Shown: positions 3,001 through 47,058 of the stretch, one piece after another
Numbering within the stretch: position 1 is the first letter of the stretch
Layout of the letters: every line of letters begins with the position of its first letter
Made by a program: the position numbers and the translations under genes
Notes under the pieces: model-generated
Told to the model about the DNA's origin: nothing
Databases searched by the model: none
Seen by the model: the letters and a program-made list of their open reading frames with translations, nothing else
Assembly (NCBI GenBank): GCA_964013535.1
Contig: CAXGWS010000002.1
Span: 42,509 to 106,508 of the forward strand
Direction: 5' to 3'
Origin: an uncultured Candidatus Poseidoniales archaeon
GTDB taxonomy: Archaea > Thermoplasmatota > Poseidoniia > Poseidoniales > Poseidoniaceae
DNA length: 64,000 bases

Positions 3001-3825
3001 CCATCACCATGGCACTCATATGATAGTCCTGGGACTTATACAGTTACACTTACTGTAAGAGATTCATATGGGACTGGTGATGTAAGTAAGCAATCTTTTA
3101 CTATTGTTGTTGACGAACCTCCAGTAATCCGAGCAATAGCAATTCCTTCCGAAATTGTTGCTGGAGAATCGAGTTATCTTAGTGCTAATATTTCAGACAA
3201 TGAAATGGATAGCGGGATAATGATTTATCGTGATTTGAATATCGAAGACGGTTCGCTTTACGATAAAGATGAAACTTTGAATCCTGAATTGGTAGTTAGA
3301 TGGGATATTAACCTCGAGAAAGACACTAATAAAAATGGCATACTGAATGACGATTGGATTATACCCAAGGATAATGCTGTAAACTATCGAATCGCAGCCC
3401 TTTGGAATGAGTCAAATTCTTACACAATTATTGTTGAAGCATGTGATGGAATCGGAGTATGCGCAATCATGACCGAAGATGTTCAAGTCACTCCAAAACC
3501 AGACCCTCAACCATCATTATCGGACTTCGAACTGGAAGATTGGTCTTCATGGGTCAAGGATGCGGGTTCCGATTTGGCAACTTACATAGCATTGATTGCT
3601 GTAGCTCTTATTCTTGGTTGGTTAGTTTTGAGAGAATCGTCTGATGTAGAGGATGAGGCTAAGCAAGCGGCAGAATCCTATACCGATGTGGAGCATGTTG
3701 AAGTTCAAGGTGGACTGCTTGGTATGGATCAGCACACTCCTCCGCCAGCACCAGCGATATTGTCGAAGGAAGAACGACGAAGTGAAGATAGTGGTTATAT
3801 TAGGCCTCTACGCAGGAGAATTTGA
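1..3825 (+). CDS. Membrane-anchored PKD-repeat zinc metallopeptidase (gluzincin-like), 5' truncated by window
   Basis: Frame open back to base 1. HELQH zinc motif followed by WIDEG third ligand; several PKD-type repeats (YAWDFDDG, WEWGDG, WSFGDG, YTWDFGD...YTVTLTV); hydrophobic helix near C-terminus (YIALIAVALILGWLVL) and acidic tail. Confidence 0.8.
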   Translation, partial: VAKTTSTVAFIVQNGRTLSSTVLNNLASSWDSTIYPTMTTYYGKDYQDGRGLAAPDIDNNCQVQIVIYDIDGAFNTGGYFAPSFASSREAVFIDFADITLSWGKSIIAHELQHLLHNAQDPYENLWIDEGNADVAIYLCFGPDSTLVSHLNQWTQSPELSIRWWNQRFADYGAGFIFTMYLADHLGGGPAVRQLVQDSSTGGVSVQNLALSPPSGQPGMIGRTMSEIFANFSVAAFLDSEQGIYGFSNLDLTPTCSSSSFCRAQPTDVNSDWSAPYSSTGHTVEGWGLRAFKFTPGASSPAPLTIRLTADVSQFDGVIVTKSMVDGLLSVSDLDFQSNVATALIPGFGNLTDEVWAITWYGSTIADCDYTSCGSSYPQGTVDIEAARITAPATLTINATDLTDRDGDGNDDTVQVNFDVFSNAFFEDLDVETRIVDSQGLVVDEITSRISAGGGVNSNSNIWFTAPFDEQYTVEFDMYDMIGTLVDSVATQPWNLANMRPVANGTVSTNASQTWENILFSGGGFDAWGLSLDNNTLPYLDSPVAYAWDFDDGISSNLKSPTRSYQSIGTYNATLRIMDQGNTWSETDVITINVSDDSIPQPIITVNNVVITDNISILTNQMIQFSASRTVDNVPIQNLDFQWEWGDGTFDNGLGVYVAQHQWGSIDSTVEAYNLTLSVFDGFNTGTKSITVFVNNRVPYQIFTDNLTTYTYTSVTMPDVFTDDDGSIVSFEWDFAEGVNLDGGITDQNDDFVQTSSTSPYPAPSWNSPGTKTVTLKVTDDDGSESVTQLFVEVLNQVPIADFTVRTTEDGETIAIDFRAEDGFVDVPYTFDGISSYDIDSTNGDSTDLIFNWSFGDGEYRDSAISTFTFTEPGIHQVSLFVVDDYGAQSLTKTITVRVQNPLPIISVRILDGWVDGEQMDRNSPRPEGFIPDYWTHTFDGQQNTFTAPGYALYFDSEGTRDGDRRYEGRYSPVQDENNSNWNGIVEYTWDFGDATPLSKEPSPWHSYDSPGTYTVTLTVRDSYGTGDVSKQSFTIVVDEPPVIRAIAIPSEIVAGESSYLSANISDNEMDSGIMIYRDLNIEDGSLYDKDETLNPELVVRWDINLEKDTNKNGILNDDWIIPKDNAVNYRIAALWNESNSYTIIVEACDGIGVCAIMTEDVQVTPKPDPQPSLSDFELEDWSSWVKDAGSDLATYIALIAVALILGWLVLRESSDVEDEAKQAAESYTDVEHVEVQGGLLGMDQHTPPPAPAILSKEERRSEDSGYIRPLRRRI

Positions 3826-3864
3826 TAGTTATAATATTGAACTTAGTCAATATAGGACCCAGTA

Positions 3865-4959
3865 GTGATGGATATGAGCAAAAGATCAGTCATTGTATTG
3901 GTGTTGGTCTTTACTCTTCCAATGTTCGCAGTAAATGGCAACATGTTGGCAGTAAATGCCTCTGCGGCAGATGCATGTAGTGGAGATATAGAACCTATTA
4001 ACTGGAATCAAACCATTGGACGCTCAGCATTAGTGCCTCACTATAATTACTACAAAGGTTGGTTTGGTTACGATTACTACGAGGATGAAAAAGGCCGAGA
4101 CCACAACAGACCGTCTTATGAGCAAGAAACACTGCGTGAGAAAACGGCACTAAATCCAGAAGAAGAATGGATGTATGTCGAATTCGATAGGGGCACTCGT
4201 TTAGCACCATTGACGTCAAATTATCATACCACTATGTTGGTTGGCAATGATAGTATTGGCGCTTTGAGGGTCAATCTTTCCTCTCAGCATAGAACAACTG
4301 TCTGTATTTCAGTACAATCATTAAATCAAACTGATGATGATTATTCCGTCGATGTATATCTGCTGACAACCTCTGAATATTACAGGTACACTGAGTTGTA
4401 TTATACCTCTCACACCGAGGATAGTTTCTACAACGACCTTTCGGAGGTACTAAGCGATATATCGCCAGAATGGCGAAGTTTTGACTTCACAGGCTGGCGG
4501 TCTTACCGAGATGCCCATCAATATGAGTCAATTCAAGAGATCAACTTCGCTTTGAACTTGGATGGGCCGGAATCGTACACTCCGATTTTTGGTGGTGAGG
4601 AATGGCAGGATTTCTATATTGTAATTGATACATGGGACAATAATCATGACCGTGATGCAGTTGCACCAGACGTGGTTACAGCCGCCGATGTTACCATTAT
4701 AACAACAGAGAGATCATTCATCCTGCCCAATTACACTGTTGCAATAATCTTCTTATTGATGATCGTTGGTATGGTTATATTTCCTTTCATCCTCAATTCA
4801 AGATATATGAAAGCCGGATTAGAGGTTAACCAAACCGAACAAGAATCTGGTTTGGTGCCTTCGCTTGAGACTCAACCAGAAATTTCCCGGGAAGTGGATA
4901 GTATAGATGGTAGTTTGAAAGATTACCCTGAGATAATGAATGAAGATACTGGTGATTAG
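3865..4959 (+). CDS. Hypothetical secreted protein with C-terminal membrane anchor
   Basis: N-terminal signal-like hydrophobic stretch; TM segment VAIIFLLMIVGMVIFPFIL; acidic tail. Confidence 0.65.
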   Translation: MMDMSKRSVIVLVLVFTLPMFAVNGNMLAVNASAADACSGDIEPINWNQTIGRSALVPHYNYYKGWFGYDYYEDEKGRDHNRPSYEQETLREKTALNPEEEWMYVEFDRGTRLAPLTSNYHTTMLVGNDSIGALRVNLSSQHRTTVCISVQSLNQTDDDYSVDVYLLTTSEYYRYTELYYTSHTEDSFYNDLSEVLSDISPEWRSFDFTGWRSYRDAHQYESIQEINFALNLDGPESYTPIFGGEEWQDFYIVIDTWDNNHDRDAVAPDVVTAADVTIITTERSFILPNYTVAIIFLLMIVGMVIFPFILNSRYMKAGLEVNQTEQESGLVPSLETQPEISREVDSIDGSLKDYPEIMNEDTGD

Positions 4960-5753
4960 TATTCCATTAATGCCCAGGCATCCCTTAGGTCTCTTACGTT
5001 AATTAGACCTCTATCCGACAATCTGAAGTGGTTCATCATAGTAGCATAAACAATCTCCTGCTCAAGCACAGGGGCATGCAACCTTACCCAATCTCCACCA
5101 TTGCCTAATCCCATGAGAGAGTGGCTAGAGTCTTGTCCTATGAGGCTATTTGCTGCATCAAAAATCTGCAAAGCGTCTCGGTGGTTGCTGACGGTTGAGC
5201 AAAACTTCACTATGTCGCCTTGAGAAGAACTGTCTTTGACGATGTTAACTATCTCATCGGATTTAGGGGTAGATTTGGTTTCGTGAATAGAGGCGATAAC
5301 CTTGCAACCAGATTCTTTTGCCAATTTGAGTAATTTATCCCGAGCCTTCTTTTCGATAGATAATTCAAGGTCAATGAAGGTAACTTGTGATTTAATCCCT
5401 GCTTCAAGTATGTCCAATCTTTCATCCTCTGTGCCGGCAAAGAAACCTCCTTCTCTAACCGCTCTTGTTGTGAATATAACAGGCACAGGAATACCTTCTT
5501 TTAGAGTCTCGATAGCGCTCTCGACATCGATTTCAGAAAAATCCTTGACACCCCATTCTTCGATTGGGGGCATCTTTGTATATTCTTCTCCGTCATCGTT
5601 TACCATCGTTATCGGTTCGGGCTTGTTAAGATATAATTTATCGAATCTTACCTCGACATAATCAGCTCCAGCAATATTTGCTCGAGTCGCTTCATCAATC
5701 ATCTCTTCGACGGTGATTGCTTCCAGTGAGACACATACTTTTGGTTCTGCCAT
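4956..5753 (-). CDS. aroD: Type I 3-dehydroquinate dehydratase
   Basis: EVRFD, IFTTR..EGG, IDLEL, ASIHE, DIVKF, MG..G..RL motifs of type I DHQase. Confidence 0.85.
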   Translation of the reverse strand: MAEPKVCVSLEAITVEEMIDEATRANIAGADYVEVRFDKLYLNKPEPITMVNDDGEEYTKMPPIEEWGVKDFSEIDVESAIETLKEGIPVPVIFTTRAVREGGFFAGTEDERLDILEAGIKSQVTFIDLELSIEKKARDKLLKLAKESGCKVIASIHETKSTPKSDEIVNIVKDSSSQGDIVKFCSTVSNHRDALQIFDAANSLIGQDSSHSLMGLGNGGDWVRLHAPVLEQEIVYATMMNHFRLSDRGLINVRDLRDAWALMEY

Positions 5754-6032
5754 GGGTTGCCCAATTTGGATATCTTATTAATGCTCACGGCTATTATAGT
5801 AGAATTTTATTTCGAGAAACGCGTTATTGATGGCCATGTTTAGGTCTTGTTTTGACCTCTAATTTCACGAGTTTTGCACTACCTTAAAGTACCCCCTTCT
5901 CCGATAGACAATGGTAGGGGTTTTGACAGGCAAGTTTCGTGGTACAGCGGCCTAGTTGAGCAGTAGTAAAATTGGTAATTTCAGCCATGAAATATAACAA
6001 AATAATGTTGTTTTAATCCAAACTCGAGGTGA

Positions 6033-10740
<4,708 letters not shown>

Positions 10741-21377: not shown

Positions 21378-23081
21378 GTGTTTTATTTGTCAGATGACAA
21401 ATATGAATCTCACATCAAAGCGGTACTGTCAGAATGTCCGGAAGCCGACACTGATGAGGTAAAAGCGGCGTTTGTAAAGTATGAAGAGGAATTTTATATT
21501 CCTCCTCAAGATGCTTTAAGGTCAATAATAAGAAGATTCCAAGGCGATAAAACACCAAAATCCTCAACCAGCTCAAATACCCAACCAAGACAAACAAAAA
21601 AGGTTGCATCGCTGTCTGAACTTAGTGGCTCAGATCGAGATGTTGAAATTGAGGTTGAAGTAATCTCTCACAACCTACGGGAGCAAACGATTAGAGGAGA
21701 GCAGAAACAGATAGCATTTGGCTTAATTGAGGATAATCCATGGGAGGAAAGTGGTACTAGAGTACGATGGGAATACAAGGATTGGGGCCCAAATTCGAAT
21801 ATTACGCCGGGTTCAGTAATTCGCATCGAAGGTGCATCGGTAAACGAATATCAAGGGCGTATGTCACTTAATATAAATCAAGGTGCTCGTATCGCGGTAT
21901 TAAGAGAAGGCACTAGACCAGTTCATCAACCCGGGGAGCCGATTGACATAGCATCGATTCCTAAGGATGGTTATATTTGCGTCGTTGGCAGAGTATTGTC
22001 ATCTAGAGAAGACCAAATACATAGGAAAGATGGTTCTGGTTCAATAGACGTTGTTAGGGGTCGAATTGCCGATGAAACAGGTACAATTGGGTTTCTTTCT
22101 TGGGAGCCGTTTAGCCATGAAGTTGGTAGTTTGATTAAGATTGATGGTGCTCAAGTTAGGACCTTTAGGGATACTCCTGAACTAAATTTTGGCAGAACGA
22201 CAAAAATAGAGTCATTCCATGATGCAAATTTTGCTGATGTTGAGAAACTAAATACTCACAGTATGAAAACCATCTCGCAATTAACTGACGGCTCAAGAGA
22301 TGTTGAAGCAGTAGTCCAAATTACTGAGTGGCAGAAAAGAAGTTTCACCAAAGATGGCGAAGAGAGATTTCTTTGGTCAGGACAAATCGCTGATCCTACC
22401 GGTCGCTGTAGGATGAGTGCTTGGCAAGAATTGCCCATTAGTGAAGCAGATTTACCGGTTACTGTCAAATTAAGTGGCGTCAGAGTTAGGGCGTGGCAAG
22501 GAATACCAGATATTACGGTAGACAAAGCAGAACAGGTTGAAATCCTAAAATCAACACCTTGGGACGAAGAAATAGATTTGGCAAATCACGTTGTTGATAT
22601 TGACCTAACTGAGATAGTAAATTCTGCAAGTAGGGTCGGTATCTCGACATCAGGTACGGTAGTTAGTATTAGAGAAGATTCTGGAATAATCCAACGCTGT
22701 GTCGACTGTCGAAGAGTGTTAAGAGATGGCGAGTGTAGTTTTGAGGGATGCGTAGGCAAGATGGAGTCTCAGCAAGATGTAAGGCTAAGGCTGGTTATCG
22801 ATAATGGAGAAGTAACTGCTTCCTTACTTATTAACAAGGATGCCGCTTTGGAGTTGTTGAATACTACTGAGGATAAGATGGCTGCTAACATCGACTCGGA
22901 AGGTAAAATGGAGTTTGTTCAATCTCTGCGTGATTATCTATTAGGCAGGAGCCTTGTTGTTAGTGGGCGGACTATAGTTGACGATCAAGGAGCCATGATT
23001 TTAGCTGATAATGCTAAACTGGAATCTGTAGATGCTGTTATGTTAGCGACAGAAGTTAGAACCAAATGGGGTGTTAACTGA
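21378..23081 (+). CDS. Replication protein A large subunit (multiple OB folds plus zinc finger)
   Basis: Repeated OB signatures (IADETGTIGFLSW, IADPTGRCRMSAW, LVIDNG); CxxC-x8-C zinc finger (CVDCRRVLRDGEC). Confidence 0.88.
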   Translation: MFYLSDDKYESHIKAVLSECPEADTDEVKAAFVKYEEEFYIPPQDALRSIIRRFQGDKTPKSSTSSNTQPRQTKKVASLSELSGSDRDVEIEVEVISHNLREQTIRGEQKQIAFGLIEDNPWEESGTRVRWEYKDWGPNSNITPGSVIRIEGASVNEYQGRMSLNINQGARIAVLREGTRPVHQPGEPIDIASIPKDGYICVVGRVLSSREDQIHRKDGSGSIDVVRGRIADETGTIGFLSWEPFSHEVGSLIKIDGAQVRTFRDTPELNFGRTTKIESFHDANFADVEKLNTHSMKTISQLTDGSRDVEAVVQITEWQKRSFTKDGEERFLWSGQIADPTGRCRMSAWQELPISEADLPVTVKLSGVRVRAWQGIPDITVDKAEQVEILKSTPWDEEIDLANHVVDIDLTEIVNSASRVGISTSGTVVSIREDSGIIQRCVDCRRVLRDGECSFEGCVGKMESQQDVRLRLVIDNGEVTASLLINKDAALELLNTTEDKMAANIDSEGKMEFVQSLRDYLLGRSLVVSGRTIVDDQGAMILADNAKLESVDAVMLATEVRTKWGVN

Positions 23082-24007
23082 TGCAATCCACTAGGTCTGT
23101 AAAGCGACAAGCAGCAACACCAATGTTTGCTTCAGAATACGGTGAATCAACACTATCAGAGAAAGGCTCTGGTGAATTCGACCCCTCATTTGTCGTGACG
23201 AAATTAGGCTCAAGGGTCAACCGAGTAATCGTAGCAGGGTTATTAGAAAGAATTGAAGGTAGAGACGTTGCTAATGGCTCAGTTATTTACCAAGGACAGT
23301 TAAGAGATCCATCTGGGATAAATTATTTCTCAGTGGGCGACTATGTTTCTGATTCAGTCAAAGAAACCACCATACAACTTTCTTCAAGACTAGAAAACGG
23401 AGAGCCAATCTTGCTGTTGATGATTGCGAAAACTAGGTTATACCAAACTGAAGAGGGAGCTATCTACACTTCCTTGAGGCCAGAAGAAATGTGCGTTATT
23501 GACGCCCAAAGATACGCCTCTTGGTTGGCAAAAACCTCCGACTCTATGATGAATAGAATGTCCAATTATATCTCTAGTTTGGATTACGAGGCTAATACGG
23601 AATCGTTGTCAAAGTCAGGAATGTCGGAACAGCAAATTTTGGGCCTAGTTTCTTCGAGAAATCACTATGGCGATGTTGACCTCGAACATTATCGATTAAA
23701 TGTGATGCAGGCTCTTGATATTGCTGAAGGAAAGTTAGACGCAGCAAGCAAGCCTGCTCCTCAACAATTACCGATTCATGAAAAACCAGCGGAGTCAAAT
23801 GATGGTGATGATAAACCAGATTTAGAAGCCGCAATTGTAGACATAATTACGAAGTTAGATCAAGGTGATGGTGTCGAATTTGAAACGGTATTAGTCAATG
23901 CAGAGGCCCGTGGATTCCAACGCTCTGTTGCTGAAGAAAAACTCGAAGAATTATCAGAAAACGGTACCGTACATGAGCCTGCATTCGGTTGGTTTAGATT
24001 AGTTTGA
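23081..24007 (+). CDS. RPA-associated subunit (Rpa2-like OB fold plus C-terminal winged helix)
   Basis: TKLGSRVNRVIVAG, RDPSG, SLRPE and terminal GTVHEP motifs; translationally coupled to RPA. Confidence 0.82.
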   Translation: MQSTRSVKRQAATPMFASEYGESTLSEKGSGEFDPSFVVTKLGSRVNRVIVAGLLERIEGRDVANGSVIYQGQLRDPSGINYFSVGDYVSDSVKETTIQLSSRLENGEPILLLMIAKTRLYQTEEGAIYTSLRPEEMCVIDAQRYASWLAKTSDSMMNRMSNYISSLDYEANTESLSKSGMSEQQILGLVSSRNHYGDVDLEHYRLNVMQALDIAEGKLDAASKPAPQQLPIHEKPAESNDGDDKPDLEAAIVDIITKLDQGDGVEFETVLVNAEARGFQRSVAEEKLEELSENGTVHEPAFGWFRLV

Positions 24008-36657: not shown

Positions 36658-39303
36658 TTAATCCTCCAACATTGATTTTGCTTCGTAGAGTGCATCCATG
36701 GCGTCTCTTGGGGACATATTGTCCAAATCTAAGTCTTTTAGGAATGAGAATAGTTGGGTTTCTTCAAGGGATGTAAGTTTATGCTCACTTCCATCCTTGG
36801 CCATTGAAGCAGCGGCAAAATATCCCATTAAACTCGTTTGACCAACTTCTCTTGCAATTGGTGATGAAGAGTCTCCAGCCTTGGCTCCGTATGCTTGCTG
36901 TTCTAAGAATTGAAGTAAATCCGATGCTCTCTCAACCACGCTACGTGGCAATCCAGCCAACGCTCCAACTTGTATCCCATAGGATTCATCGCATGGTCCA
37001 TCAGCAATAGTATGCAAAAATTTCAATTTTCCGTTAACTTGTGAGACTTGAACATGGATATTCTTTAAAATTTCAATGTCTTTTTCCAAGCCAACAAGTT
37101 GATGATAATGGGTCGCAAATAATGTTCTTGACTGGATTCTATTGCATATGTCTTCAGTGACAGACCAAGCGATAGATAAACCATCGAATGTAGATGTTCC
37201 ACGGCCAATTTCATCTAACAAAACCAATGAATTCTTTGTTGCCTTGCGAAGAATATGTGCCACTTCAATCATCTCCATCATGAATGTTGAACGACCTCTT
37301 TTCAGATCATCACTTGCCCCAACTCTCGTGAAGATTCTGTCGACTAAACCTAGCCTTGCTGATTCTGCTGGAACATAGCTGCCAGACTGAGCTAAAATCG
37401 AAATTAATGCTGCGGTTCTCAGATACGTCGATTTTCCACCCATGTTTGGTCCGGTAATCAACAAGAATCGGTTTTTTTTGTCCATAACAATGTCGTTGGC
37501 AACAAAACCATGATTTTGTTCTAGGACGGGGTGTCTTGATTGTTTTATGTTGATTGTTGAATCATCAACCATTTTTGGCTTATTCCAATTTCTCTTGCGG
37601 GCAACTGTTGCAAAACATTGCAGAACATCTATGGCCGCAATTTTGCCAGCAATTTCAGCCAATGTCGATGAATTCTTTCGACATTCGTCTCTTAGATTTT
37701 GGAACAGTGAATATTCTATTTGTTTTATTTTTGAGTCCGCAGACATCAATAAGTCATCCCTTTCCATTAATTCCTCGGTAGTAAATCTCGAACCATTGGT
37801 CATCTGTTGTTTTCGAATCCAATTTTCTGGAACTTTTTCTAAATGAGAATTTGTCACTTCAATAAACCAGCCTATTTGGCGATTGGACTTGACCTTGAGA
37901 GAGGGTATTTCTAACTCCTTTCGCAACTGTGTTTCCAAATTTTTGAACCATTGATAACCATCCATTGATATCTCACGTAATTCGTCTAATTCAATATTAA
38001 CGCCCTTCCTAATGATTCCTCCGTCCCTTAATCCTAGTGGGAGTTCATCATTCAGCGTCCTAATTATGTGTTCTGCCATATCTGACAGAGCCGTCAAATT
38101 TTCGCTAAGATGAGTCAACAGAACATCACTAGCATCAAGACATATTTGAGAAATTGCTGGCATCCTTTCTAATGCTAATGCAGTTGCAAGCAGGTCTCTC
38201 GCATTACTTCGATTGTATGCTAACTGTGTTGAGAGTCTTTCAATATCCCTCAAACCTGCTAAATTCTTTCTTAGCATATCTAATCGTTTAGATGATGATT
38301 TCAGAATCTTAACTGCATTGTGTCTTAGTTCTATTGCTTCAACTTGATGTAGCGGCCTCAATAACCATGTCTTCAATAGTCTTCGACCCATCGCGGTGCG
38401 ACAGAAATTCATACTTGATACCAAACTACCTTCATACTCGCCTGAAAGGGTACTGGTAATCTCCAAGTTCCTCAAAGTTGTTTGGTCAACGATCAAATGT
38501 CCGGTTTCCTCGACGATATGCAAATCGCGCAACGGGATATCATCTTTGAAATGAACCTCGGCGAGATAATCTGCCGCAAAACCGGCTGCTTCGATGGAAA
38601 GTGGCGAATTATCTAGATCCAAATGGCCTAGATCAGATACTTCTAGGAGTGATTCAAGTCGTTCAAGCCGTCTTTTTTTGTTCACGCTGTGTTGTGATAT
38701 AACGCAATTATCCAAGTTTGCAAAAATGGCACAAAGCTCTGAATTTTCAGCATCTTTAGGCGAAATTACGATTTCTGCGGGATTCCACCTTAGTAACTCA
38801 TCCTCTAAACTGCTGAACCGTTCATTATCCATCCAAGTCGAGGCCCATGACTCTCCAGTGGAAGAATCAATAACAGCCATGCTCAATGAGGATTTAGACA
38901 GAACCACTGAACTCAGTACAGAGCGCTCATCAGTCGCCAGCAAAGACTCTTCATACAGGCTACCAGGGGTGTAAATTCTCGTAACGACTCTTTCGAGCAA
39001 TTTCGCTCCTTCACGCAACTCTTGCTCTTGTTCAGCAACGGTTACCTTGAAGCCGGACTTTAGCATAATCTTGAGATTATCTTCCAAAGCATGCCACGGG
39101 AAGCCAGCCATTGGTATTGGCTGTGCAGCATTTTTATCGCGTGAGGTAAGAGCAAGGCCTAGAACAGGCGCGGCTACTTCAGCATCTTCGTGAAATAACT
39201 CGTAAAAGTCACCCATTCGGAAAAAGAGAATGGTTCCGGGATGTTCATGTTTTATTTCCATGAATTGGTCCATCATTGTTCTCTTCGACAATATAGTCAC
39301 CAC
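36658..39303 (-). CDS. mutS: DNA mismatch repair protein MutS (MutS1)
   Basis: FFRMGDFYELF, ITGPNMGGKSTY, STFMMEM, LDEIGRGTST, ATHYH, SYGI. Confidence 0.97.
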   Translation of the reverse strand: MVTILSKRTMMDQFMEIKHEHPGTILFFRMGDFYELFHEDAEVAAPVLGLALTSRDKNAAQPIPMAGFPWHALEDNLKIMLKSGFKVTVAEQEQELREGAKLLERVVTRIYTPGSLYEESLLATDERSVLSSVVLSKSSLSMAVIDSSTGESWASTWMDNERFSSLEDELLRWNPAEIVISPKDAENSELCAIFANLDNCVISQHSVNKKRRLERLESLLEVSDLGHLDLDNSPLSIEAAGFAADYLAEVHFKDDIPLRDLHIVEETGHLIVDQTTLRNLEITSTLSGEYEGSLVSSMNFCRTAMGRRLLKTWLLRPLHQVEAIELRHNAVKILKSSSKRLDMLRKNLAGLRDIERLSTQLAYNRSNARDLLATALALERMPAISQICLDASDVLLTHLSENLTALSDMAEHIIRTLNDELPLGLRDGGIIRKGVNIELDELREISMDGYQWFKNLETQLRKELEIPSLKVKSNRQIGWFIEVTNSHLEKVPENWIRKQQMTNGSRFTTEELMERDDLLMSADSKIKQIEYSLFQNLRDECRKNSSTLAEIAGKIAAIDVLQCFATVARKRNWNKPKMVDDSTINIKQSRHPVLEQNHGFVANDIVMDKKNRFLLITGPNMGGKSTYLRTAALISILAQSGSYVPAESARLGLVDRIFTRVGASDDLKRGRSTFMMEMIEVAHILRKATKNSLVLLDEIGRGTSTFDGLSIAWSVTEDICNRIQSRTLFATHYHQLVGLEKDIEILKNIHVQVSQVNGKLKFLHTIADGPCDESYGIQVGALAGLPRSVVERASDLLQFLEQQAYGAKAGDSSSPIAREVGQTSLMGYFAAASMAKDGSEHKLTSLEETQLFSFLKDLDLDNMSPRDAMDALYEAKSMLED

Positions 39304-40577: not shown

Positions 40578-40721
40578 AACCGTCGCCCGCAAACATAGGT
40601 TGCAATATCTAGCATTTTATTGTTGCAGGCTACGTCGCCGATTTTTTCTGTTTAGTCTTTGTTGGCCATGCGGAGAAGTCATAAAGGGAACATGATTCGC
40701 AGGAATGCTTGGAGGACTAAC

Positions 40722-41261
40722 ATGGCACGTAAACCAGCATCAATGTATCGAAGACTGAAGGGTCCTGCATATACTCGACGTAAGTATATTGGCGGTGTTC
40801 CAAATAACAGAATTCACCAATTTCACGTTGGAAACCGCCGTGCTGCAGAGACAGGACAGTTTTCAGTAATAGTTGAACTAATTGCAGATACTGACTGCCA
40901 AATTAGGCATACTGCACTCGAGGCAGCTCGTGTTATCTCAAATTCAACAATCAGGAAACAAGCAGGTGCTCAAGGATATGCACTAAGAGTCCACACATAC
41001 CCACACCACGTCCTAAGAGAAAACAAGCAAGCAACAGGTGCTGGTGCTGACCGTGTCTCGCAGGGAATGCGCTGTGCATTTGGAAAGAATGTCGGAACTG
41101 CTGCCCGAGTAAAGCGAGGACAAAGAGTAATTTCGATTCAAGTAGACCCTGAGTTCTACCTAACTGCTAGAGATGCTCTTAGAAAGGCGAGCATGAAGTT
41201 CCCAACTCCATGTACAATCAAACTCATCAAAGGCCACGAACATCTCAAAGGTCTCATTTGA
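40722..41261 (+). CDS. rpl10e: 50S ribosomal protein L10e (uL16)
   Basis: MARKPASMYR, YTRRKYIGG, QIRHTALEAAR, HVLRENKQATGAGADR..GMR.AFGK; GGAGG SD. Confidence 0.97.
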   Translation: MARKPASMYRRLKGPAYTRRKYIGGVPNNRIHQFHVGNRRAAETGQFSVIVELIADTDCQIRHTALEAARVISNSTIRKQAGAQGYALRVHTYPHHVLRENKQATGAGADRVSQGMRCAFGKNVGTAARVKRGQRVISIQVDPEFYLTARDALRKASMKFPTPCTIKLIKGHEHLKGLI

Positions 41262-41342: not shown

Positions 41343-43115
41343 ATGCGCATTGCAGTCTTGATAGAAGACCGTTGTAAGCCAAATAGCAACGCATATGATT
41401 ACTTGAAAAAATGGGCAGGATCCTGTGGCGGCGAGTGCATACAAGTTATTGGTGACAAATGCAAGATTTTGGAAAGTGCTTGTCCCCCCTGTATCGTGCG
41501 AGCAAAACACTGCCCTGATGACGCCGTGGTAATAATAAATCTACCAGCTGAGTTAGAGACAGATATGGTGCATCGATATTCACTAAATGGGTTTAGGCTG
41601 TTTAAACTTCCAACACCGTCGAAAGACAGCGTAGTAGGGATACTTGGTCCAAATGGTATGGGTAAATCAACCGCAATCAATGCATTATCGGGACGAATGG
41701 TGCCAAATTTAGGAGACTGGGCAAATAAATCTCCGGATTGGGAAAGCATAATTGAAACCTTACCTAGGGGTGAATTACGGGATTTTTTAATTGCCGTTAA
41801 AGAGCAGAAGATTACTATTGCAGTAAAACCGCAAAATGTCGATAAAATCCCCAAAAAGATAGACGGAACTGTTGGTGACTTGCTGTCTAAGGTTGACGAG
41901 CGAGGTATATTTGAGGAGATCACAAACGAGCTTGGACTGAATCATTTGTTGGATCGTAAAGTAAAACAATTGTCCGGAGGAGAACTTCAGAGAATGGCAA
42001 TATGTGCGACTTTAATGAAGGATGCAGATGTTTACTTCTTTGATGAGCCTTCGTCTTACCTTGACATCCACCAGAGGATGAAAATCGTCAAGATAATACA
42101 AAAACTTGCTACGACAAAACGAGTAATAGTCATCGAACACGATTTAGCGGTACTCGATGTTTTGGCAGACTTGGTCCACATAGTCTACGGGAAGAAAGGG
42201 GCATTTGGGGTATTTACCCCTGCTCGAACAACCAGACAAGCAATAAATTCCTATCTCGATGGCTACCTCACAGAACAAAATGTGAGAATACGAAGTAAGC
42301 CAATCAAATTTTTACTTCACAGGGACCGAAATACCTCTGTTGGAAATCAAATTGTGTCATGGGCAGGGTTGAAGAAAAGCCTTGGAGATTTCAACTTCAG
42401 TGCTGAAGAGGGTGCACTACACAGAGGGGAAGTAGTTGGTGTAGTTGGTCCAAACGGTACGGGTAAATCTACTATGATGAAGATACTTGCAGGGCTTATT
42501 GAGTACGATGATGGATGGGTTGAAAACACACCAACTGTTTCTTACAAGCCACAGCATATTGATGTAGATATGGATTGCAGCGTCCAGCTCTGGCTTGATA
42601 GTGAAATCGGCGCTAAGTGGCGTAGCGGAGAATTTAATGTCAATGTAATCAAAGCCTTAGGGGTTGATCAATTATTGCCTAAACGAGTAAAGAAACTGTC
42701 CGGTGGAGAGCGTCAAGCTGTATCAATTGCCATTTGTCTTGGACGTGATGCAGACTTGTACTTGTTAGATGAGCCATCAGCTCACCTTGATGCGAATGCT
42801 AGAATGGAAGCAGCCAAAGCGATTCGAAGAACCATGGAATCAAACGAAAAGTCAGCATTTGTCATCGATCACGATGTTTATTTCATAGACATACTAAGTG
42901 ACTCTTTGTTGGTTTTTGAAGGGGATGGTGGACAATATGGTAAGGCCACTGGACCATTCAGCCTAAGAGACGGTATGAACCGATTTTTGAAGGGAGTCAA
43001 TATCACCTTTAGGCGAGATCATGATTCTAAACGCCCAAGGATAAACAAGTTGGAAAGCCGCAAAGACCGTGAGCAACAATCTTCAGGAGATTACTACTCA
43101 TTTGAATCGAAATAG
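41343..43115 (+). CDS. rli: Ribosome recycling factor ABCE1 (RLI) with atypical N-terminal Cys pattern
   Basis: MRIAV, INLP, HRY..NGFRLF.LP.P; two ABC cassettes (GPNGMGKST, LSGGELQR, GPNGTGKST, LSGGERQ); GMNRFL..ITFRRD...RPRINK. Confidence 0.95.
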   Translation: MRIAVLIEDRCKPNSNAYDYLKKWAGSCGGECIQVIGDKCKILESACPPCIVRAKHCPDDAVVIINLPAELETDMVHRYSLNGFRLFKLPTPSKDSVVGILGPNGMGKSTAINALSGRMVPNLGDWANKSPDWESIIETLPRGELRDFLIAVKEQKITIAVKPQNVDKIPKKIDGTVGDLLSKVDERGIFEEITNELGLNHLLDRKVKQLSGGELQRMAICATLMKDADVYFFDEPSSYLDIHQRMKIVKIIQKLATTKRVIVIEHDLAVLDVLADLVHIVYGKKGAFGVFTPARTTRQAINSYLDGYLTEQNVRIRSKPIKFLLHRDRNTSVGNQIVSWAGLKKSLGDFNFSAEEGALHRGEVVGVVGPNGTGKSTMMKILAGLIEYDDGWVENTPTVSYKPQHIDVDMDCSVQLWLDSEIGAKWRSGEFNVNVIKALGVDQLLPKRVKKLSGGERQAVSIAICLGRDADLYLLDEPSAHLDANARMEAAKAIRRTMESNEKSAFVIDHDVYFIDILSDSLLVFEGDGGQYGKATGPFSLRDGMNRFLKGVNITFRRDHDSKRPRINKLESRKDREQQSSGDYYSFESK

Positions 43116-43123
43116 GTGAGATT

Positions 43124-44854
43124 ATGCCGTTTGGAACACCGCCATCAGGAGGGCCACTAAGCAGAAGCCGAACTAGAATTTCTGCGTCATCACTCACGAA
43201 GTACCTGAGATGCCCTCAGCAGTTTTTCCTAACCAATAAATTAGGTCTATCGAGTCCGAAATCGATTTCGCAAATACTAGGAATAGTTTTGGAAGATTCA
43301 CTATGTTCAATCCTAATGAGGAGGCCAGTAAGTATTAACTCACTCGAAGAATTAGAATCATGGTGCTATGAATTAGCCGAACATGAAGCAGTTAACTGCT
43401 ACGAATTGGGTAAGCAAAGGTGGGACTCAACAATGTGGCAAAATTCTACGCAAAGTTGGAATGATGTAACTGTTGAGGAGTTGTCGAGAAAAATAAAAAA
43501 TGGCTTGAAATTATTCCTAAAAGAGGTAAAAAATTGTTTTAATTCAAATGGTGGACCATATTTAGCGGATTTTAGATCGGGTACTACGCCCTTCAAAATC
43601 CCAAGTCCGTCATGGGGCGATGAACCGATTTTTCCTATTCCGGACAAGGTTAGAAATTTTGGCATGAGGACTTGGGCTAAAGATGAACCAATGACTTGGC
43701 AGGCTGCAGGTGAGCCAATTACTTGGGTAGAAGCTTGGGAAATTGCAAGGCCATGGGTAAAAGATCCTAGAGTTCACCAACCTCAAAGACTGTTTCATCC
43801 TGATGGATGGGCAGCAGGTGAATTAGATTTAGTTTTGAGATGGGATGGTAAAATTAGATTGATCGACATAAAGTCGGGAAGTCCATCTTCAAAGTTCGCC
43901 GAATCTCTGATTCACCAACTGAATTTCTATGCGTGGTTGTGGCATGAAACGCATGACAATGAGCCTGTTGAAAAAATTGAAGGTTGGTATTTAGACGGGC
44001 CTGAAATCGTAGAATTCGCAGTCCCCTCGCTTGATGAGTTCCAGGACCTCGGTGCGAAATATCGCAATATTCACCGAGAGATGCTTGATTTGGGTGAAGG
44101 ACCGGTTAAATTCCCGGACAGTTACCCATCTCCTTGTACTCAATCTGCTGGATGCTTTTGGTGTTCATTCGGTAACAAAGACTATGATTATGAATCAGAT
44201 TATTTGAGTGAATTAGAAAATACCGAGATAGCAATCACATCTCCAAGCCAGAACATTGGAGATATCCAGTCTAGAGTCAACATCAAAGGAAAATTCACGG
44301 GCCAGTGGGGTCCTCTGCCTAATCATTATGCTGAACCGGTTTTAGGTGCAATGGTGAGCGTCTCTGGAACTCAAATCACCATTGAAGAAAGTGAGCCTAA
44401 TGGCTTTCCATCTCTGCATGATTTCTCAGACGGAGAGGTGCTAATAATCGATGCATTACCTGGTGTTTGGCGCGGTAACCCAAGACTCTATCTTGACAAC
44501 AAAAGTAAGATTGTTCCGATTAAATCGAGTAACATTGAGGATTTAGAGGCTTATGAGATCACTAGAGTTGGTTTGATGAGAACTAGGGCAAATATTGAAG
44601 GAGTTATTGTTTCTATAGACAAAAGAACCGGCGTTAGGTTAGATGAAAAGCCTTGGTCAATGCTAAATTTACATTTATGGGATGGAAATCATGTCGTCGA
44701 AGTAGTTGCTTTTGGTTCGAGCATAACTAGTCAAATGTTATCGCTAAGGCCCGGTGAAAAAATTAAGATCATTTCAGCAGAGTTAGGTTGGAGGTCGGGA
44801 TTGCCACAATTGAGAATCGATCAACGCTCAACCAGAATTATCAATCTAGATTAA
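43124..44854 (+). CDS. RecB/AddB/Cas4-like PD-(D/E)XK nuclease fused to C-terminal OB folds (paralog A)
   Basis: ISASSL..Y.RCP, GELDLV, IDIKSG, QLNFY, C-x5-CxxC; C-terminal OB-like NIEGVIVSI...LHLWDGN..VEVVAFG...LRPGEKIKI. Confidence 0.8.
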   Translation: MPFGTPPSGGPLSRSRTRISASSLTKYLRCPQQFFLTNKLGLSSPKSISQILGIVLEDSLCSILMRRPVSINSLEELESWCYELAEHEAVNCYELGKQRWDSTMWQNSTQSWNDVTVEELSRKIKNGLKLFLKEVKNCFNSNGGPYLADFRSGTTPFKIPSPSWGDEPIFPIPDKVRNFGMRTWAKDEPMTWQAAGEPITWVEAWEIARPWVKDPRVHQPQRLFHPDGWAAGELDLVLRWDGKIRLIDIKSGSPSSKFAESLIHQLNFYAWLWHETHDNEPVEKIEGWYLDGPEIVEFAVPSLDEFQDLGAKYRNIHREMLDLGEGPVKFPDSYPSPCTQSAGCFWCSFGNKDYDYESDYLSELENTEIAITSPSQNIGDIQSRVNIKGKFTGQWGPLPNHYAEPVLGAMVSVSGTQITIEESEPNGFPSLHDFSDGEVLIIDALPGVWRGNPRLYLDNKSKIVPIKSSNIEDLEAYEITRVGLMRTRANIEGVIVSIDKRTGVRLDEKPWSMLNLHLWDGNHVVEVVAFGSSITSQMLSLRPGEKIKIISAELGWRSGLPQLRIDQRSTRIINLD

Positions 44855-44891
44855 GGTAGATTTGAAATGGGTTAACCATAAACCCCGAAGC

Positions 44892-46721
44892 ATGCCGGTT
44901 TCTGAAGTGGATGCTGAGTTAGACTCAGTGGGACCATATAACCGATTATCGGCAAGTCAAGTAAACTCCTACAGAGCATGCAAGAGAATGTGGTTTTATG
45001 AGAAAGTTTTGAAATTTAAAATTCGGCAAATTCCGGTACTATACGTTGGTAGGGCCGTGGAAGACGCCATTTGCAAAACCCTCAAAGAATCTCCGCTGTT
45101 GTTATTGTCAAATGCCTCAGAACATACTTTAGCAAAAATTCCATTGAATGATGACGGAAAACCATCAAGAAATGAAGGTAATACTTGGCCAGCAAATAGG
45201 ATAATCCCCTTGGAAGAATCACAAGTACCAAAATCATTTGAAGCGATTCATAAATGGGCTAAACAACGGGTTGAAGCACATTTGAAAACCTCATTATCAG
45301 TTGTTAGGAAAGACTGGGAAAGACAGGAAAGGAAGTCTGGAGACTGGTCCGAAGTTGATTTTGACTATTGTTTGCAAATGTGTATCAATGCTCTGAATTT
45401 TCATATGGCAGAGGTTGAACGATGCTACGCAAATATAGACCAACAGACCTTGACGAATTGGCGTAACGGTAAGCGCGAATATTGGCCTTCACCCGATGGT
45501 TTTGGATTTCAATTACCCGGTAAACACCCTTTGGCTGCTCGAGGAGAAATAACTGTATGCGAAGCTTGGGAAATTGCTCGTCCGTGGTTTGTCGAGCCGG
45601 AGGCGGGCCAATTTAGCATGAATGCAATACATCCTGATTACTGGTTCCAAGGCGAATATGATCTAGTTTATCGGTGGGATGGTAATATCAAAATCGTTGA
45701 TATTAAAGCAAGTAAAGGAATTGGCGACCGGTCTGGTGACTATATCGAACAGCTTAGAATGTATGCTATGTTATGGTGGGTTACACATGATAAGACACAG
45801 TTAGTATCCGACTTAGAAATTTGGTACCTGGGGGCGAATGTGGTGAAACCAATCCCAATTCCAACTGAATCTGAAATGTCTGTTTTAGAGGAAGAATTAG
45901 GTGCCTTGTGGAATGAGATAAAGAATCAAAAAATCTCTATAGAAAACTGTCCTGCACAACCTTCTGCAGTAAGGGGTTTTACTGAGGGAGGTGTTGCAGT
46001 AAATCCTCCAAAAGATCAAGTCCGCTGTGATAGATGTGACTGGACCAAATTCTGTGCTGGAGGCCAAGGTGATGAGTATCGTGAAGCAATGGAAGAGTAT
46101 TCCTTACCAGGGCTACTAACTCCGATAAGACCTGTTTCATTCCAGGATTTAAATGTCAGATTCAGTTTGGCGGCCACCGTAGATTCGGTGAATTACCGAG
46201 AAGATAACTTCCCCGAAATTAAAATCATTCAAAATGGCTATCGTGCAAGCATCGACATAAAGGTTGGGAAGAATCAAGATGGTTCCCAAACTTATCCCGA
46301 AGGGTTGACAAAAAATGACACAATATATCTTCATAATGTGATAATTAACTCCAACTTTCGCGGTGAATTAGTCGCCAAAGTAGACCCGTTGGCAAAAATA
46401 ACCAATTCAGCGAAAGGCTCTGACTGCTCGGATAAATTGCTTGATTTTAGAGCTAGGTGGGATATTGTTGGAAAACTAGCGTACAAGTTTAATCGTTCAG
46501 GAATTGGTAGAAATGGGCGAGAATGGCATCGTAAAGGCATGGTAATTTTCGACAAGAATCGTTCAATAAAAATTTCAGGGTGGTCAAATGATTGGGGGCA
46601 TCAGTATGATATGGCAGATGAGGGAGATTACGTACTGTTATCTAACATTGAACTTGATGCATGGGCTGACCAGTTGCGTGGGCAGATAGGGAGGAATTCT
46701 CGAATGGATGTGGTAAACTAA
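44892..46721 (+). CDS. RecB/AddB/Cas4-like PD-(D/E)XK nuclease fused to C-terminal OB folds (paralog B)
   Basis: LSASQV..Y.AC, GEYDLV, VDIKAS, QLRMY, CDRCDWTKFC; C-terminal OB-like DIVGKL...GMVIFDKN.SIKISGW...EGDYVLLSN. Confidence 0.8.
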   Translation: MPVSEVDAELDSVGPYNRLSASQVNSYRACKRMWFYEKVLKFKIRQIPVLYVGRAVEDAICKTLKESPLLLLSNASEHTLAKIPLNDDGKPSRNEGNTWPANRIIPLEESQVPKSFEAIHKWAKQRVEAHLKTSLSVVRKDWERQERKSGDWSEVDFDYCLQMCINALNFHMAEVERCYANIDQQTLTNWRNGKREYWPSPDGFGFQLPGKHPLAARGEITVCEAWEIARPWFVEPEAGQFSMNAIHPDYWFQGEYDLVYRWDGNIKIVDIKASKGIGDRSGDYIEQLRMYAMLWWVTHDKTQLVSDLEIWYLGANVVKPIPIPTESEMSVLEEELGALWNEIKNQKISIENCPAQPSAVRGFTEGGVAVNPPKDQVRCDRCDWTKFCAGGQGDEYREAMEEYSLPGLLTPIRPVSFQDLNVRFSLAATVDSVNYREDNFPEIKIIQNGYRASIDIKVGKNQDGSQTYPEGLTKNDTIYLHNVIINSNFRGELVAKVDPLAKITNSAKGSDCSDKLLDFRARWDIVGKLAYKFNRSGIGRNGREWHRKGMVIFDKNRSIKISGWSNDWGHQYDMADEGDYVLLSNIELDAWADQLRGQIGRNSRMDVVN

Positions 46722-46974: not shown

Positions 46975-47056
46975 GCCGAGATCGCATAGCCCGGTATTGC
47001 GGTGGATTCGAAATCCACTGTCGTAAGACGCGGGGGTTCAAATCCCTCTCTCGGCG
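46975..47056 (+). tRNA. tRNA-Ser (anticodon CGA)
   Basis: Acceptor GCCGAGA/TCTCGGC with discriminator G; anticodon arm GTGGA-TTCGAAA-TCCAC; long variable arm GTCGTAAGAC; T arm GGGGG-TTCAAAT-CCCTC; CCA not encoded. Confidence 0.95.
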
Positions 47057-47058
47057 CC

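Follow-up and report, generated by a model that had tools for sequence, protein, structure and literature searches.

Tandem PD-(D/E)XK nucleases joined to RPA-like OB folds in Poseidoniales, candidate single-strand-directed enzymes without a motor

What do two neighbouring genes do when each encodes a nuclease joined to a candidate single-strand-binding module, and do the two products need each other? This question is raised by genes A (43124-44854, forward strand) and B (44892-46721, forward strand) in a 64,000-nucleotide (nt) stretch of DNA from an uncultured Candidatus Poseidoniales archaeon (GenBank assembly GCA_964013535.1, contig CAXGWS010000002.1, positions 42,509 to 106,508 of the forward strand), referred to here as the window. 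A first-pass annotation, made from the letters of the DNA, had read the genes as a duplicated pair of RecB/Cas4-like nucleases fused to RPA-like oligonucleotide/oligosaccharide-binding (OB) folds, and had proposed that they form a heterodimer operating without a helicase. We find a real, conserved and uncharacterised nuclease-OB family in which B, found in all lineages, is the core enzyme and A an accessory paralogue. The reading that we favour, held with rather more confidence than doubt, is that both are motor-less DNA nucleases acting on single-stranded substrates.

The two open reading frames (ORFs) are adjacent, co-oriented and of about the lengths described before (580-610 amino acids, aa), with 576 aa in A, 609 aa in B and 37 nt between them. 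The B frame is open from a TTG at 44862 (44862-46721, a 619-aa reading); orthologues and public gene calls place the start at the ATG at 44892 (B's own protein cluster is 609 aa), and M1 and P2 are nearly invariant at the start of orthologues, A and B alike. A and B are paralogues: BLASTP aligns them at 25% identity over ~360 residues (E 3e-30), an alignment confined to the N-terminal 330-360 residues and thus to the nuclease part. Each of the colinear motifs previously quoted as common to the two was located in both proteins, namely SAS..Y..C (aa 20-30 in both), G..ED (aa 53-58 in both), EAWEIARPW (A 203-211, B 224-232), HPD.W..GE.DLV.RWDG.I...DIK (A 225-250, B 247-272), QL..Y..LW (A 265-273, B 287-295) and GWYL/IWYL. 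The DNA stretch said to be shared by the two genes proved to be a 27-nt direct repeat at 43730 (A) and 45561 (B), 85% identical. The C-termini give no BLAST alignment to each other within this genome, and they are alignable via orthologues, A matching B-type proteins of other genomes over residues 72-574. Separately, A carries a 27-nt tandem duplication (43675-43726; 1.9 copies, 80% matches) just before EAWEIARPW and upstream of the shared repeat, which encodes two similar nine-residue stretches.

The nuclease domains occupy aa 1-372 of A (43124-44239, +) and aa 1-412 of B (44892-46127, +). Both belong to Pfam family PF12705 (PDDEXK_1), with 56.3 bits for A (5.8e-15) and 49 bits for B (1e-12, over aa 28-398 of the 619-aa reading) against a gathering cut-off of 22. 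We aligned 268 full-length homologues (133 A-type and 135 B-type, all of 500-720 aa). The catalytic core that marks the RecB family, comprising D235, D248-x-K250 and Q265xxxY269 in A (43796-43942, +) and D257, D270-x-K272 and Q287xxxY291 in B (45630-45776, +), is invariant in 133/133 A-type and 135/135 B-type homologues, that is, in 268/268 sequences. The motif-I glutamate (E57) is nearly as well kept (131/133 A-type, 134/135 B-type). Hence the earlier assignment of both proteins to the Cas4/RecB class of PD-(D/E)XK nucleases, and its claim that both retain the D, DxK and QxxxY residues, are borne out by Pfam scores above the cut-off and by intact catalytic residues.

Both proteins also carry the N-terminal cysteine and C-terminal cysteine cluster that had been noticed from the translations. 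In B the cluster has the canonical form CxxCx5C (C379, C382 and C388; aa 379-388; 46026-46055, +), whereas in A it is rearranged to Cx5CxxC (C338, C344 and C347; aa 338-347; 44135-44164, +); C30 (43211-43213 in A, 44979-44981 in B) completes a set of four in each. C30 is kept in 128/133 A-type and 131/135 B-type homologues, and CxxCx5C is present in all 135 of the B-type proteins. The arrangement typical of Cas4 (an N-terminal Cys plus a C-terminal CxxCx5C) is therefore found in B and varies in A, where the 133 homologues divide into 71 with Cx5CxxC, 50 in which the pattern search found CxxC only, nine with CxxCx5C and three with none. One of the 50 (P0087) has its upstream Cys at x6 in the alignment, and A orthologues of the type found in two other families of the order (f2 and f3, see below) keep CxxCx5C. 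The three without a cluster are two truncated sequences and P0250, a 606-aa A orthologue in which all four cysteines have gone together (Gly stands in place of the N-terminal Cys, and the segment with the C-terminal cluster is deleted) and the catalytic residues are kept. Their joint loss fits ligands of a single cluster, and P0250 may be a natural variant free of iron-sulphur (Fe-S). The four cysteines are placed as in the [4Fe-4S] site of the Cas4/RecB/AddB class, and both domains are accordingly predicted to bind Fe-S. Judged from their sequences, A and B both look like active enzymes with a four-cysteine site of the Cas4/AddB type.

How close is the relationship to Cas4? Searches of the PDB with single sequences were marginal (A reached RPA at E 0.18, B nothing meaningful), and profiles were needed. 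A profile restricted to the nuclease domain (28 sequences) matched a single nuclease among solved structures, the Cas4 of Pyrobaculum calidifontis (4r5q, E 8.9e-4); it retrieved no Dna2 or Exo5 chain from the PDB, even at E <= 10. The match is colinear in three blocks (the N-terminal Cys; the D..K..QxxxY core; the C-terminal CxxCx5C), and A and B thus share with Cas4 and solo-Cas4 the motif order N-terminal Cys, D, D/ExK, QxxxY, C-terminal CxxCx5C. However, the curated Cas4 model (TIGR00372) scores A at 18.5 bits and B at 23.3 bits against a cut-off of 65, and the Cas4 family PF01930 is absent from the Pfam matches of both. Their nuclease domains, at ~370-410 residues, are also about twice the size of Cas4 because long helices are inserted between motif I and motif II (helices 74-102 and 117-140 in the model of A), and they are fused to two OB folds in a core gene of one order. 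Weak matches to the Cas4 and DruK models of PADLOC (best 9.1e-7), similarly weak ones to PHROG exonuclease families, and a protein atlas look-up that yielded, besides the family's own clusters, just generic PDDEXK_1 ones complete this picture. At the level of structure, Foldseek of the B model against predicted viral structures found RecB/Cas4-family exonucleases of archaeal and bacterial viruses (target template-modelling (TM) scores 0.44-0.65), among them R4TI04, which matches the B nuclease domain (E 5.2e-6, target TM-score 0.61), and a Cas4-family exonuclease of a Streptomyces phage (target TM-score 0.51). The setting likewise differs from that of Cas4: the neighbours of A and B are ABCE1 and a PAC2-family gene rather than cas1 and cas2, and Cas1 (PF01867) was not found in this genome (92.7% complete), in agreement with the first-pass statement that no cas gene is at hand. 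A and B are thus members of PDDEXK_1 and relatives of Cas4, not Cas4 proteins by either curated model or context.

The C-terminal parts of both proteins are tandem OB folds. AlphaFold2 (AF2) models built on family alignments have high confidence (mean predicted local distance difference test, pLDDT, 89.2 for A and 91.9 for B; predicted TM-score 0.87 for both) and show two beta-barrels in each chain: aa 385-465 (44276-44518, +) and 488-574 (44585-44845, +) in A, and aa 423-505 (46158-46406, +) and 523-607 (46458-46712, +) in B. Foldseek against the PDB places RPA70 DBD-A/B at the top (4gop_C: A 3.1e-9, B 2.4e-10), together with 1jmc_A (A 2.9e-8, B 2.6e-8; probability 1.00), followed by Pyrococcus abyssi RPA, HIN-200 domains, Teb1 and POT1, all of them tandem OB folds and all with probability 1.00. 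The listed matches of the whole models were all of this kind, so this search leaves the nuclease domain unranked against Dna2, AddB, Exo5 and Cas4. Normalised to the whole model, TM-scores reach only 0.12-0.13, since the alignment covers ~230 of ~600 residues and the barrels are placed differently relative to each other. The second barrel of B additionally matches models of baculovirus LEF-3 and phage SSB. In sequence, the family profile matches P. abyssi RPA (8aa9) at E 4.5e-8, an alignment that falls on the second OB fold of A, and Sulfolobus SSB at 6e-4; the RPA-like protein encoded in the window itself (21378-23081) matches the same profile with an hhalign probability of 91.8% (E 7e-7). 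A search of the C-termini by Foldseek had been suggested with the expectation of two OB folds, and two barrels like RPA70 DBD-A/B were found in each protein; the proposed resemblance to the window's own RPA is likewise upheld. Within the alignment to P. abyssi RPA, a family W/F falls on the Y of 'IIYDD' and an F/W on the W of 'VLWD', aromatic positions that may serve in binding single-stranded DNA (ssDNA). The likeness to RPA (RPA70 DBD-A/B, P. abyssi RPA and the window's RPA) therefore extends to the tandem arrangement and, for the second fold, to detectable sequence similarity. Unlike RPA, A and B have two OB folds only, with no match to a zinc-finger DBD-C or a winged helix seen, and their OB module is part of an enzyme and not of a free protein that coats ssDNA. 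As to the window's RPA-like gene (567 aa), it is immediately followed by a 308-aa gene (together 21378-24007, +); Pfam gave the former a sub-threshold Ssb-like_OB match (20.1 bits against a cut-off of 24) and found no match in the latter.

What would such a chain do? Nucleases of the class that includes Cas4, AddB, RecB, Dna2 and Exo5 are DNA-cutting enzymes whose usual substrate is a single strand threaded into the active site from one end, and DBD-A/B of RPA70 form the core through which RPA binds ssDNA with high affinity. By analogy, a chain with both modules would most simply be an ssDNA-directed nuclease that brings its own guide. In this proposal the OB pair would hold a stretch of ssDNA and feed its end or flap into the nuclease site, and the enzyme would cut ssDNA ends, flaps or gaps with neither a motor nor free RPA as a guide. 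Pfam at E <= 1 detects no helicase family in A or B, as the first-pass annotation had stated. With no motor in A or B, the single strand would have to come from another process, be it replication, a helicase or an AddAB-like enzyme. In genomes with both paralogues, the two may share out the task, for instance by substrate or polarity, or may bind each other. Our confidence in placing A and B within replication or repair, as enzymes of flap, gap or end trimming, is far lower for any one pathway than for the general reading. The mode of action of Cas4-class nucleases is in part described in a Cas4 phylogenomics paper (PMC5704561), whose main text contains 0 occurrences of 'OB-fold'.

By function, A and B would most resemble Dna2 or Exo5 working with RPA: a proposed Fe-S PD-(D/E)XK nuclease whose targets are ssDNA ends or flaps is combined with ssDNA binding by OB folds. 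Dna2 itself also contains an OB domain. In contrast to Dna2, A and B have no SF1B (superfamily 1B) helicase domain after the nuclease domain, and in contrast to both Dna2 and Exo5 the RPA-like module is on the same chain and not in a separate partner. With AddAB and AdnAB they share the presence of two related RecB-type nucleases with an Fe-S-type cysteine site, encoded side by side and both kept apparently active, and they differ in having no superfamily 1 (SF1) helicase or helicase-like domain. Since they lack a helicase, A and B are not AddAB, AdnAB or Dna2.

The family appears to be specific to Poseidoniales (Marine Group II archaea), where alone the full-length form was found. A search with protein A found a relative in 118/121 sampled Poseidoniales genomes, including 56/56 of high quality; the three genomes with no match are 83-88% complete. 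Protein B found no match in 237 other Thermoplasmatota genomes, among them eight of the sister family in the same class. A full-length profile detected 100/102 sampled Poseidoniales at E <= 3e-120, the exceptions being G073 (7e-5) and G078 (none), which are 87% and 88% complete. Among 299 other genomes of the phylum it gave 164 weak matches (best 3.5e-13; matched domain unlisted), and in another family of the same class (f4) 0/10 genomes matched. An exhaustive HMMER pass over 1.84 billion representative proteins yielded just 152 matches at E <= 0.001, a good number of which are fragments; the distant full-length ones share the nuclease core only. A further search of 185,579 species genomes yielded 402 relatives, of which the best 80 bear titles that name Candidatus Poseidoniaceae or Poseidoniales or use earlier designations of metagenome-assembled genomes (MAGs) of this kind. 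Public databases name proteins of the A and B types only 'PD-(D/E)XK nuclease family protein' or 'hypothetical', and we found no paper on a Cas4/RecB-type nuclease-OB fusion in Marine Group II, although supplementary files might list the family. We conclude that this is a core, vertically inherited gene of the order. Two contigs with A orthologues (52% identity) occur in MAGs labelled 'uncultured Rhodobiaceae bacterium' and 'Salipiger bermudensis'; these are probably archaeal contigs mis-binned into bacterial MAGs.

This distribution bears on the idea that A and B are a defence or anti-mobile-element pair of the solo-Cas4/DruK kind that degrades invading DNA. The weak PADLOC matches to Cas4 and DruK point in that direction, and solo-Cas4 and accessory nucleases of the Cas4 family such as ACE1 act in defence, according to published abstracts. 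Yet nearly every genome of the order has A/B as a core gene, set at a constant chromosomal position amid housekeeping genes; neither a patchy distribution nor an island context is seen, and its phylogeny tracks the genome families. No Cas1 was found in this genome, and the 27 pattern matches on IMG/VR viral contigs included no relative of A or B. We therefore regard a defence role as highly improbable.

Do the two paralogues depend on each other? We compared 27 loci retrieved by tblastn (11 from the same genus and 16 from 15 other genera). In 21 of these, A and B lie side by side, co-oriented and 25-120 nt apart, and in all 21 such pair loci ABCE1 is directly upstream of A at a distance of 0-20 nt. 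The pair loci come from families f1 and f2 and from six genera of a third, f3 (the order's second large family), and the ABCE1-A coupling is kept in all three families even though A orthologues have diverged to ~30-36% identity. The remaining six loci, from f3 genera with small genomes (1.2-1.6 Mb), have a single gene that is catalytically intact and closer to B than to A (33% vs 27% identity). It stays near PAC2, aIF2-alpha and L44e and is preceded by pdxT-like and radical-SAM-like genes; in the five B-only genomes searched, ABCE1 is on another contig or far from B, and in two that were read a grpE-like gene comes after it (the pdxT-like, radical-SAM-like and grpE-like labels are drawn from the translations). 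The ancestral ABCE1-A-B block is thus broken in the small-genome f3 genera. Of the sampled f3 genomes, 25/39 give one match only to the family profile (match counts do not equal copy numbers); among them is G027, a single 1.6-Mb contig, which gives one match with each of three queries. In the survey of the pair across Poseidoniales that had been suggested, the ABCE1-A-B arrangement is conserved in 21/21 pair loci and absent from the six loci with a B-type gene only: the A-B pair is not universal in the order.

A maximum-likelihood tree of 28 proteins (IQ-TREE quick search, LG+G4, supported by the Shimodaira-Hasegawa-like approximate likelihood-ratio test, SH-aLRT, only) resolves an A clade of 11 rows and a B clade of 17 rows, each with SH-aLRT 100; the program flagged a meeting of long branches between one B row and the A rows. 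Nested within B, the six single genes group together in one clade (99), and its sister group (97) consists of B genes from two genera in which A persists. From this structure, the duplication predates the split of the order's families and is ancient, and A was lost once, in the small-genome f3 genera, so that in much of the order B functions with no A present. The converse, A in the absence of B, was not seen in any genome examined. The single loss in these streamlined genomes provides a natural experiment on what the second paralogue contributes.

These observations weigh on the heterodimer of the first-pass annotation, in which two nucleases and four OB folds would form an obligate complex, a helicase-less analogue of AddAB/AdnAB that resects ends with one strand or polarity per subunit. 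The constant adjacency and orientation of A and B in 21/21 pair loci, the occurrence of A only where B is present and the retention of catalytic residues in both, as in the two AddAB nucleases, all speak for it, as does the report, in a passage of PMC5704561, that both members of type I-A Cas4/Csa1 paralogue pairs are essential and suggested to form a complex. Against it, B stands alone in the 25/39 f3 genomes by match count, catalytically intact and as one clade nested in B, from which it follows that B does not need A; AddAB and AdnAB differ in this respect as well, given the many genomes in which B is found and A is not. No sign of an A-B interface emerged: a complex prediction with the nuclease domains alone (A 1-372 and B 1-412) scored 0.00, which weighs neither way. 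An obligate heterodimer cannot hold for B, and as an account of the system we consider it unlikely.

A further consideration is whether the organism needs such a machine. PDDEXK_1 matches four further frames elsewhere in the genome, and contig C22 carries an AddAB-like operon of two ORFs (1502-6343, -, and 6340-10071, -, in coordinates of the fetched stretch; 4-nt overlap). It encodes a 1613-aa AddA-like protein, in which UvrD and UvrD_C are accompanied by a weak PDDEXK_1 match at the terminus, and a 1243-aa protein ending in PDDEXK_1; no other contig of the genome has UvrD-helicase matches. A relative of the AddA-like helicase subunit is present in 80/81 sampled Poseidoniales genomes. The description of a helicase-less system accordingly stands for A and B themselves and fails for the organism, which has a separate AddAB-like helicase-nuclease; A and B need not be its end-resection machine, and a second one, such as the heterodimer would supply, is not required. 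Nothing in the data links A or B to the AddAB-like helicase. A DUF87 search for HerA gave one match, in an 824-aa frame, and NurA was not found in the genome. Two stand-alone PDDEXK_1 proteins are also encoded, one of 415 aa (L041, 1657-2904, -, contig C8) and one of 398 aa (L042, 1727-2923, -, contig C10); in the C-terminal half of the latter lies a Cas_Cas4 (DUF83) domain, whereas ~240 N-terminal residues have no assignment.

The link to ABCE1 raises another possibility. ABCE1, a twin-ABC ATPase (41343-43115, +; Pfam ABC_tran 2.7e-41 in two stretches), adjoins A on its 5' side: its stop at 43115 is separated from the A start at 43124 by 8 nt containing the Shine-Dalgarno-like word GGTGA, the same 8-bp gap that had been noted before. 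The two genes are probably co-transcribed in one operon. Contigs from four metatranscriptome runs of one marine study, used in assembled form and with small word shares (0.06-0.18), cover parts of rpl10e, ABCE1 and A (43417-43660) and three parts of B (45561-45706, 46052-46237 and 46453-46691), and a 276-nt contig bridges the ABCE1/A junction (42942-43215); the stretch with no contig cover (most of 43810-45520) carries no meaning. These contigs are compatible with transcription and with an ABCE1-A transcript.

From this position the first-pass annotation had also allowed a role in RNA or ribosome quality control. In such a role A and B would act with ABCE1, the OB folds binding single-stranded RNA (ssRNA) and the nuclease cutting mRNA or rRNA at stalled or recycled ribosomes. 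The 0-20 nt spacing kept in f1, f2 and f3 at ~30-36% A identity, the contig that spans the junction and a neighbourhood of translation genes (rpl10e upstream, aIF2-alpha and L44e downstream) are what this suggestion draws on. However, all detectable relatives of the nuclease (Cas4, RecB/AddB-type enzymes and phage exonucleases) and of the OB pair (RPA, SSB, POT1, Teb1 and LEF-3) act on DNA. The ABCE1 link is absent in the six B-only loci and is not needed for B, and that with rpl10e is confined to f1: rpl10e, together with a MutS-like gene, lies upstream in 4/4 f1 loci outside the genus and in 0/6 pair loci of f2 and f3. Moreover, archaeal replication genes are known in clusters with translation genes without acting on RNA, as set out in passages of PMC2643942, where the conserved replication-translation clusters include L44E-S27E-aIF2alpha-Nop10, the group found just downstream of B here; such a neighbourhood does not by itself point to RNA. 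An RNA role argued from ABCE1 adjacency is therefore improbable, and we do not adopt it. The more specific version, in which ABCE1 would recruit A (with B), or co-assemble with it, as a ribosome-associated nuclease, with OB folds re-purposed for ssRNA and cleavage of mRNA or rRNA at stalled ribosomes, we consider decidedly improbable. If true, it would be an archaeal counterpart of the rescue endonucleases of the Cue2/SmrB type, built from a Cas4-type DNA nuclease.

Several points nonetheless tell against the reading of A and B as single-strand-directed DNA nucleases. DNA as substrate, ssDNA specificity, polarity, Fe-S content and pathway are, for all members, predicted from family resemblance. 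HIN-type tandem OB folds, which bind double-stranded DNA (dsDNA), are among the Foldseek matches and make the ssDNA specificity uncertain. The one characterised archaeal solo-Cas4, that of Methanosarcina mazei, forms a large oligomer with a preference for supercoiled dsDNA and weak ssDNA binding, according to the abstract of PMC12501428, and thus differs from what we propose for A and B. As the genome already has an AddAB-like machine, no missing function forces the assignment. The tight coupling of ABCE1 and A (0-20 nt in all lineages with the pair) has no explanation from a role on DNA; it could reflect a link to translation or merely growth-coupled expression. Finally, the RNA-library contigs may be DNA carry-over and cannot show a single transcript.

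If the proposed mechanism is true, A and B would be a compact natural model of how ssDNA binding steers a threading nuclease, and an unrecognised component would be added to archaeal replication and repair. They combine a Cas4/RecB-type nuclease and an RPA-like module on one chain, where eukaryotes use separate proteins (Dna2 or Exo5 plus RPA). Poseidoniales, which have no cultured member, rank among the most abundant surface-ocean archaea, and their DNA metabolism is known only from genomes. In these cells A and B would work beside machinery of bacterial type, namely the AddAB-like operon and a MutS-like gene, the latter recognised from its translation only.

Around the locus, rpl10e (40659-41261, +) lies upstream of ABCE1 in the window. 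Farther upstream, on the opposite strand, an 881-aa ORF (36658-39303, -) appears to be of the bacterial MutS-like type from its translation; such an ORF sits two genes upstream of ABCE1 in f1 loci. Downstream of B, a PAC2-family gene is encoded on the opposite strand (Pfam 6.7e-22), followed farther on by genes for aIF2-alpha and L44e, labels read from translations. Between B and the convergent PAC2 gene lies a tRNA-Ser(CGA) gene (46975-47058, +), ~250 nt 3' of B.

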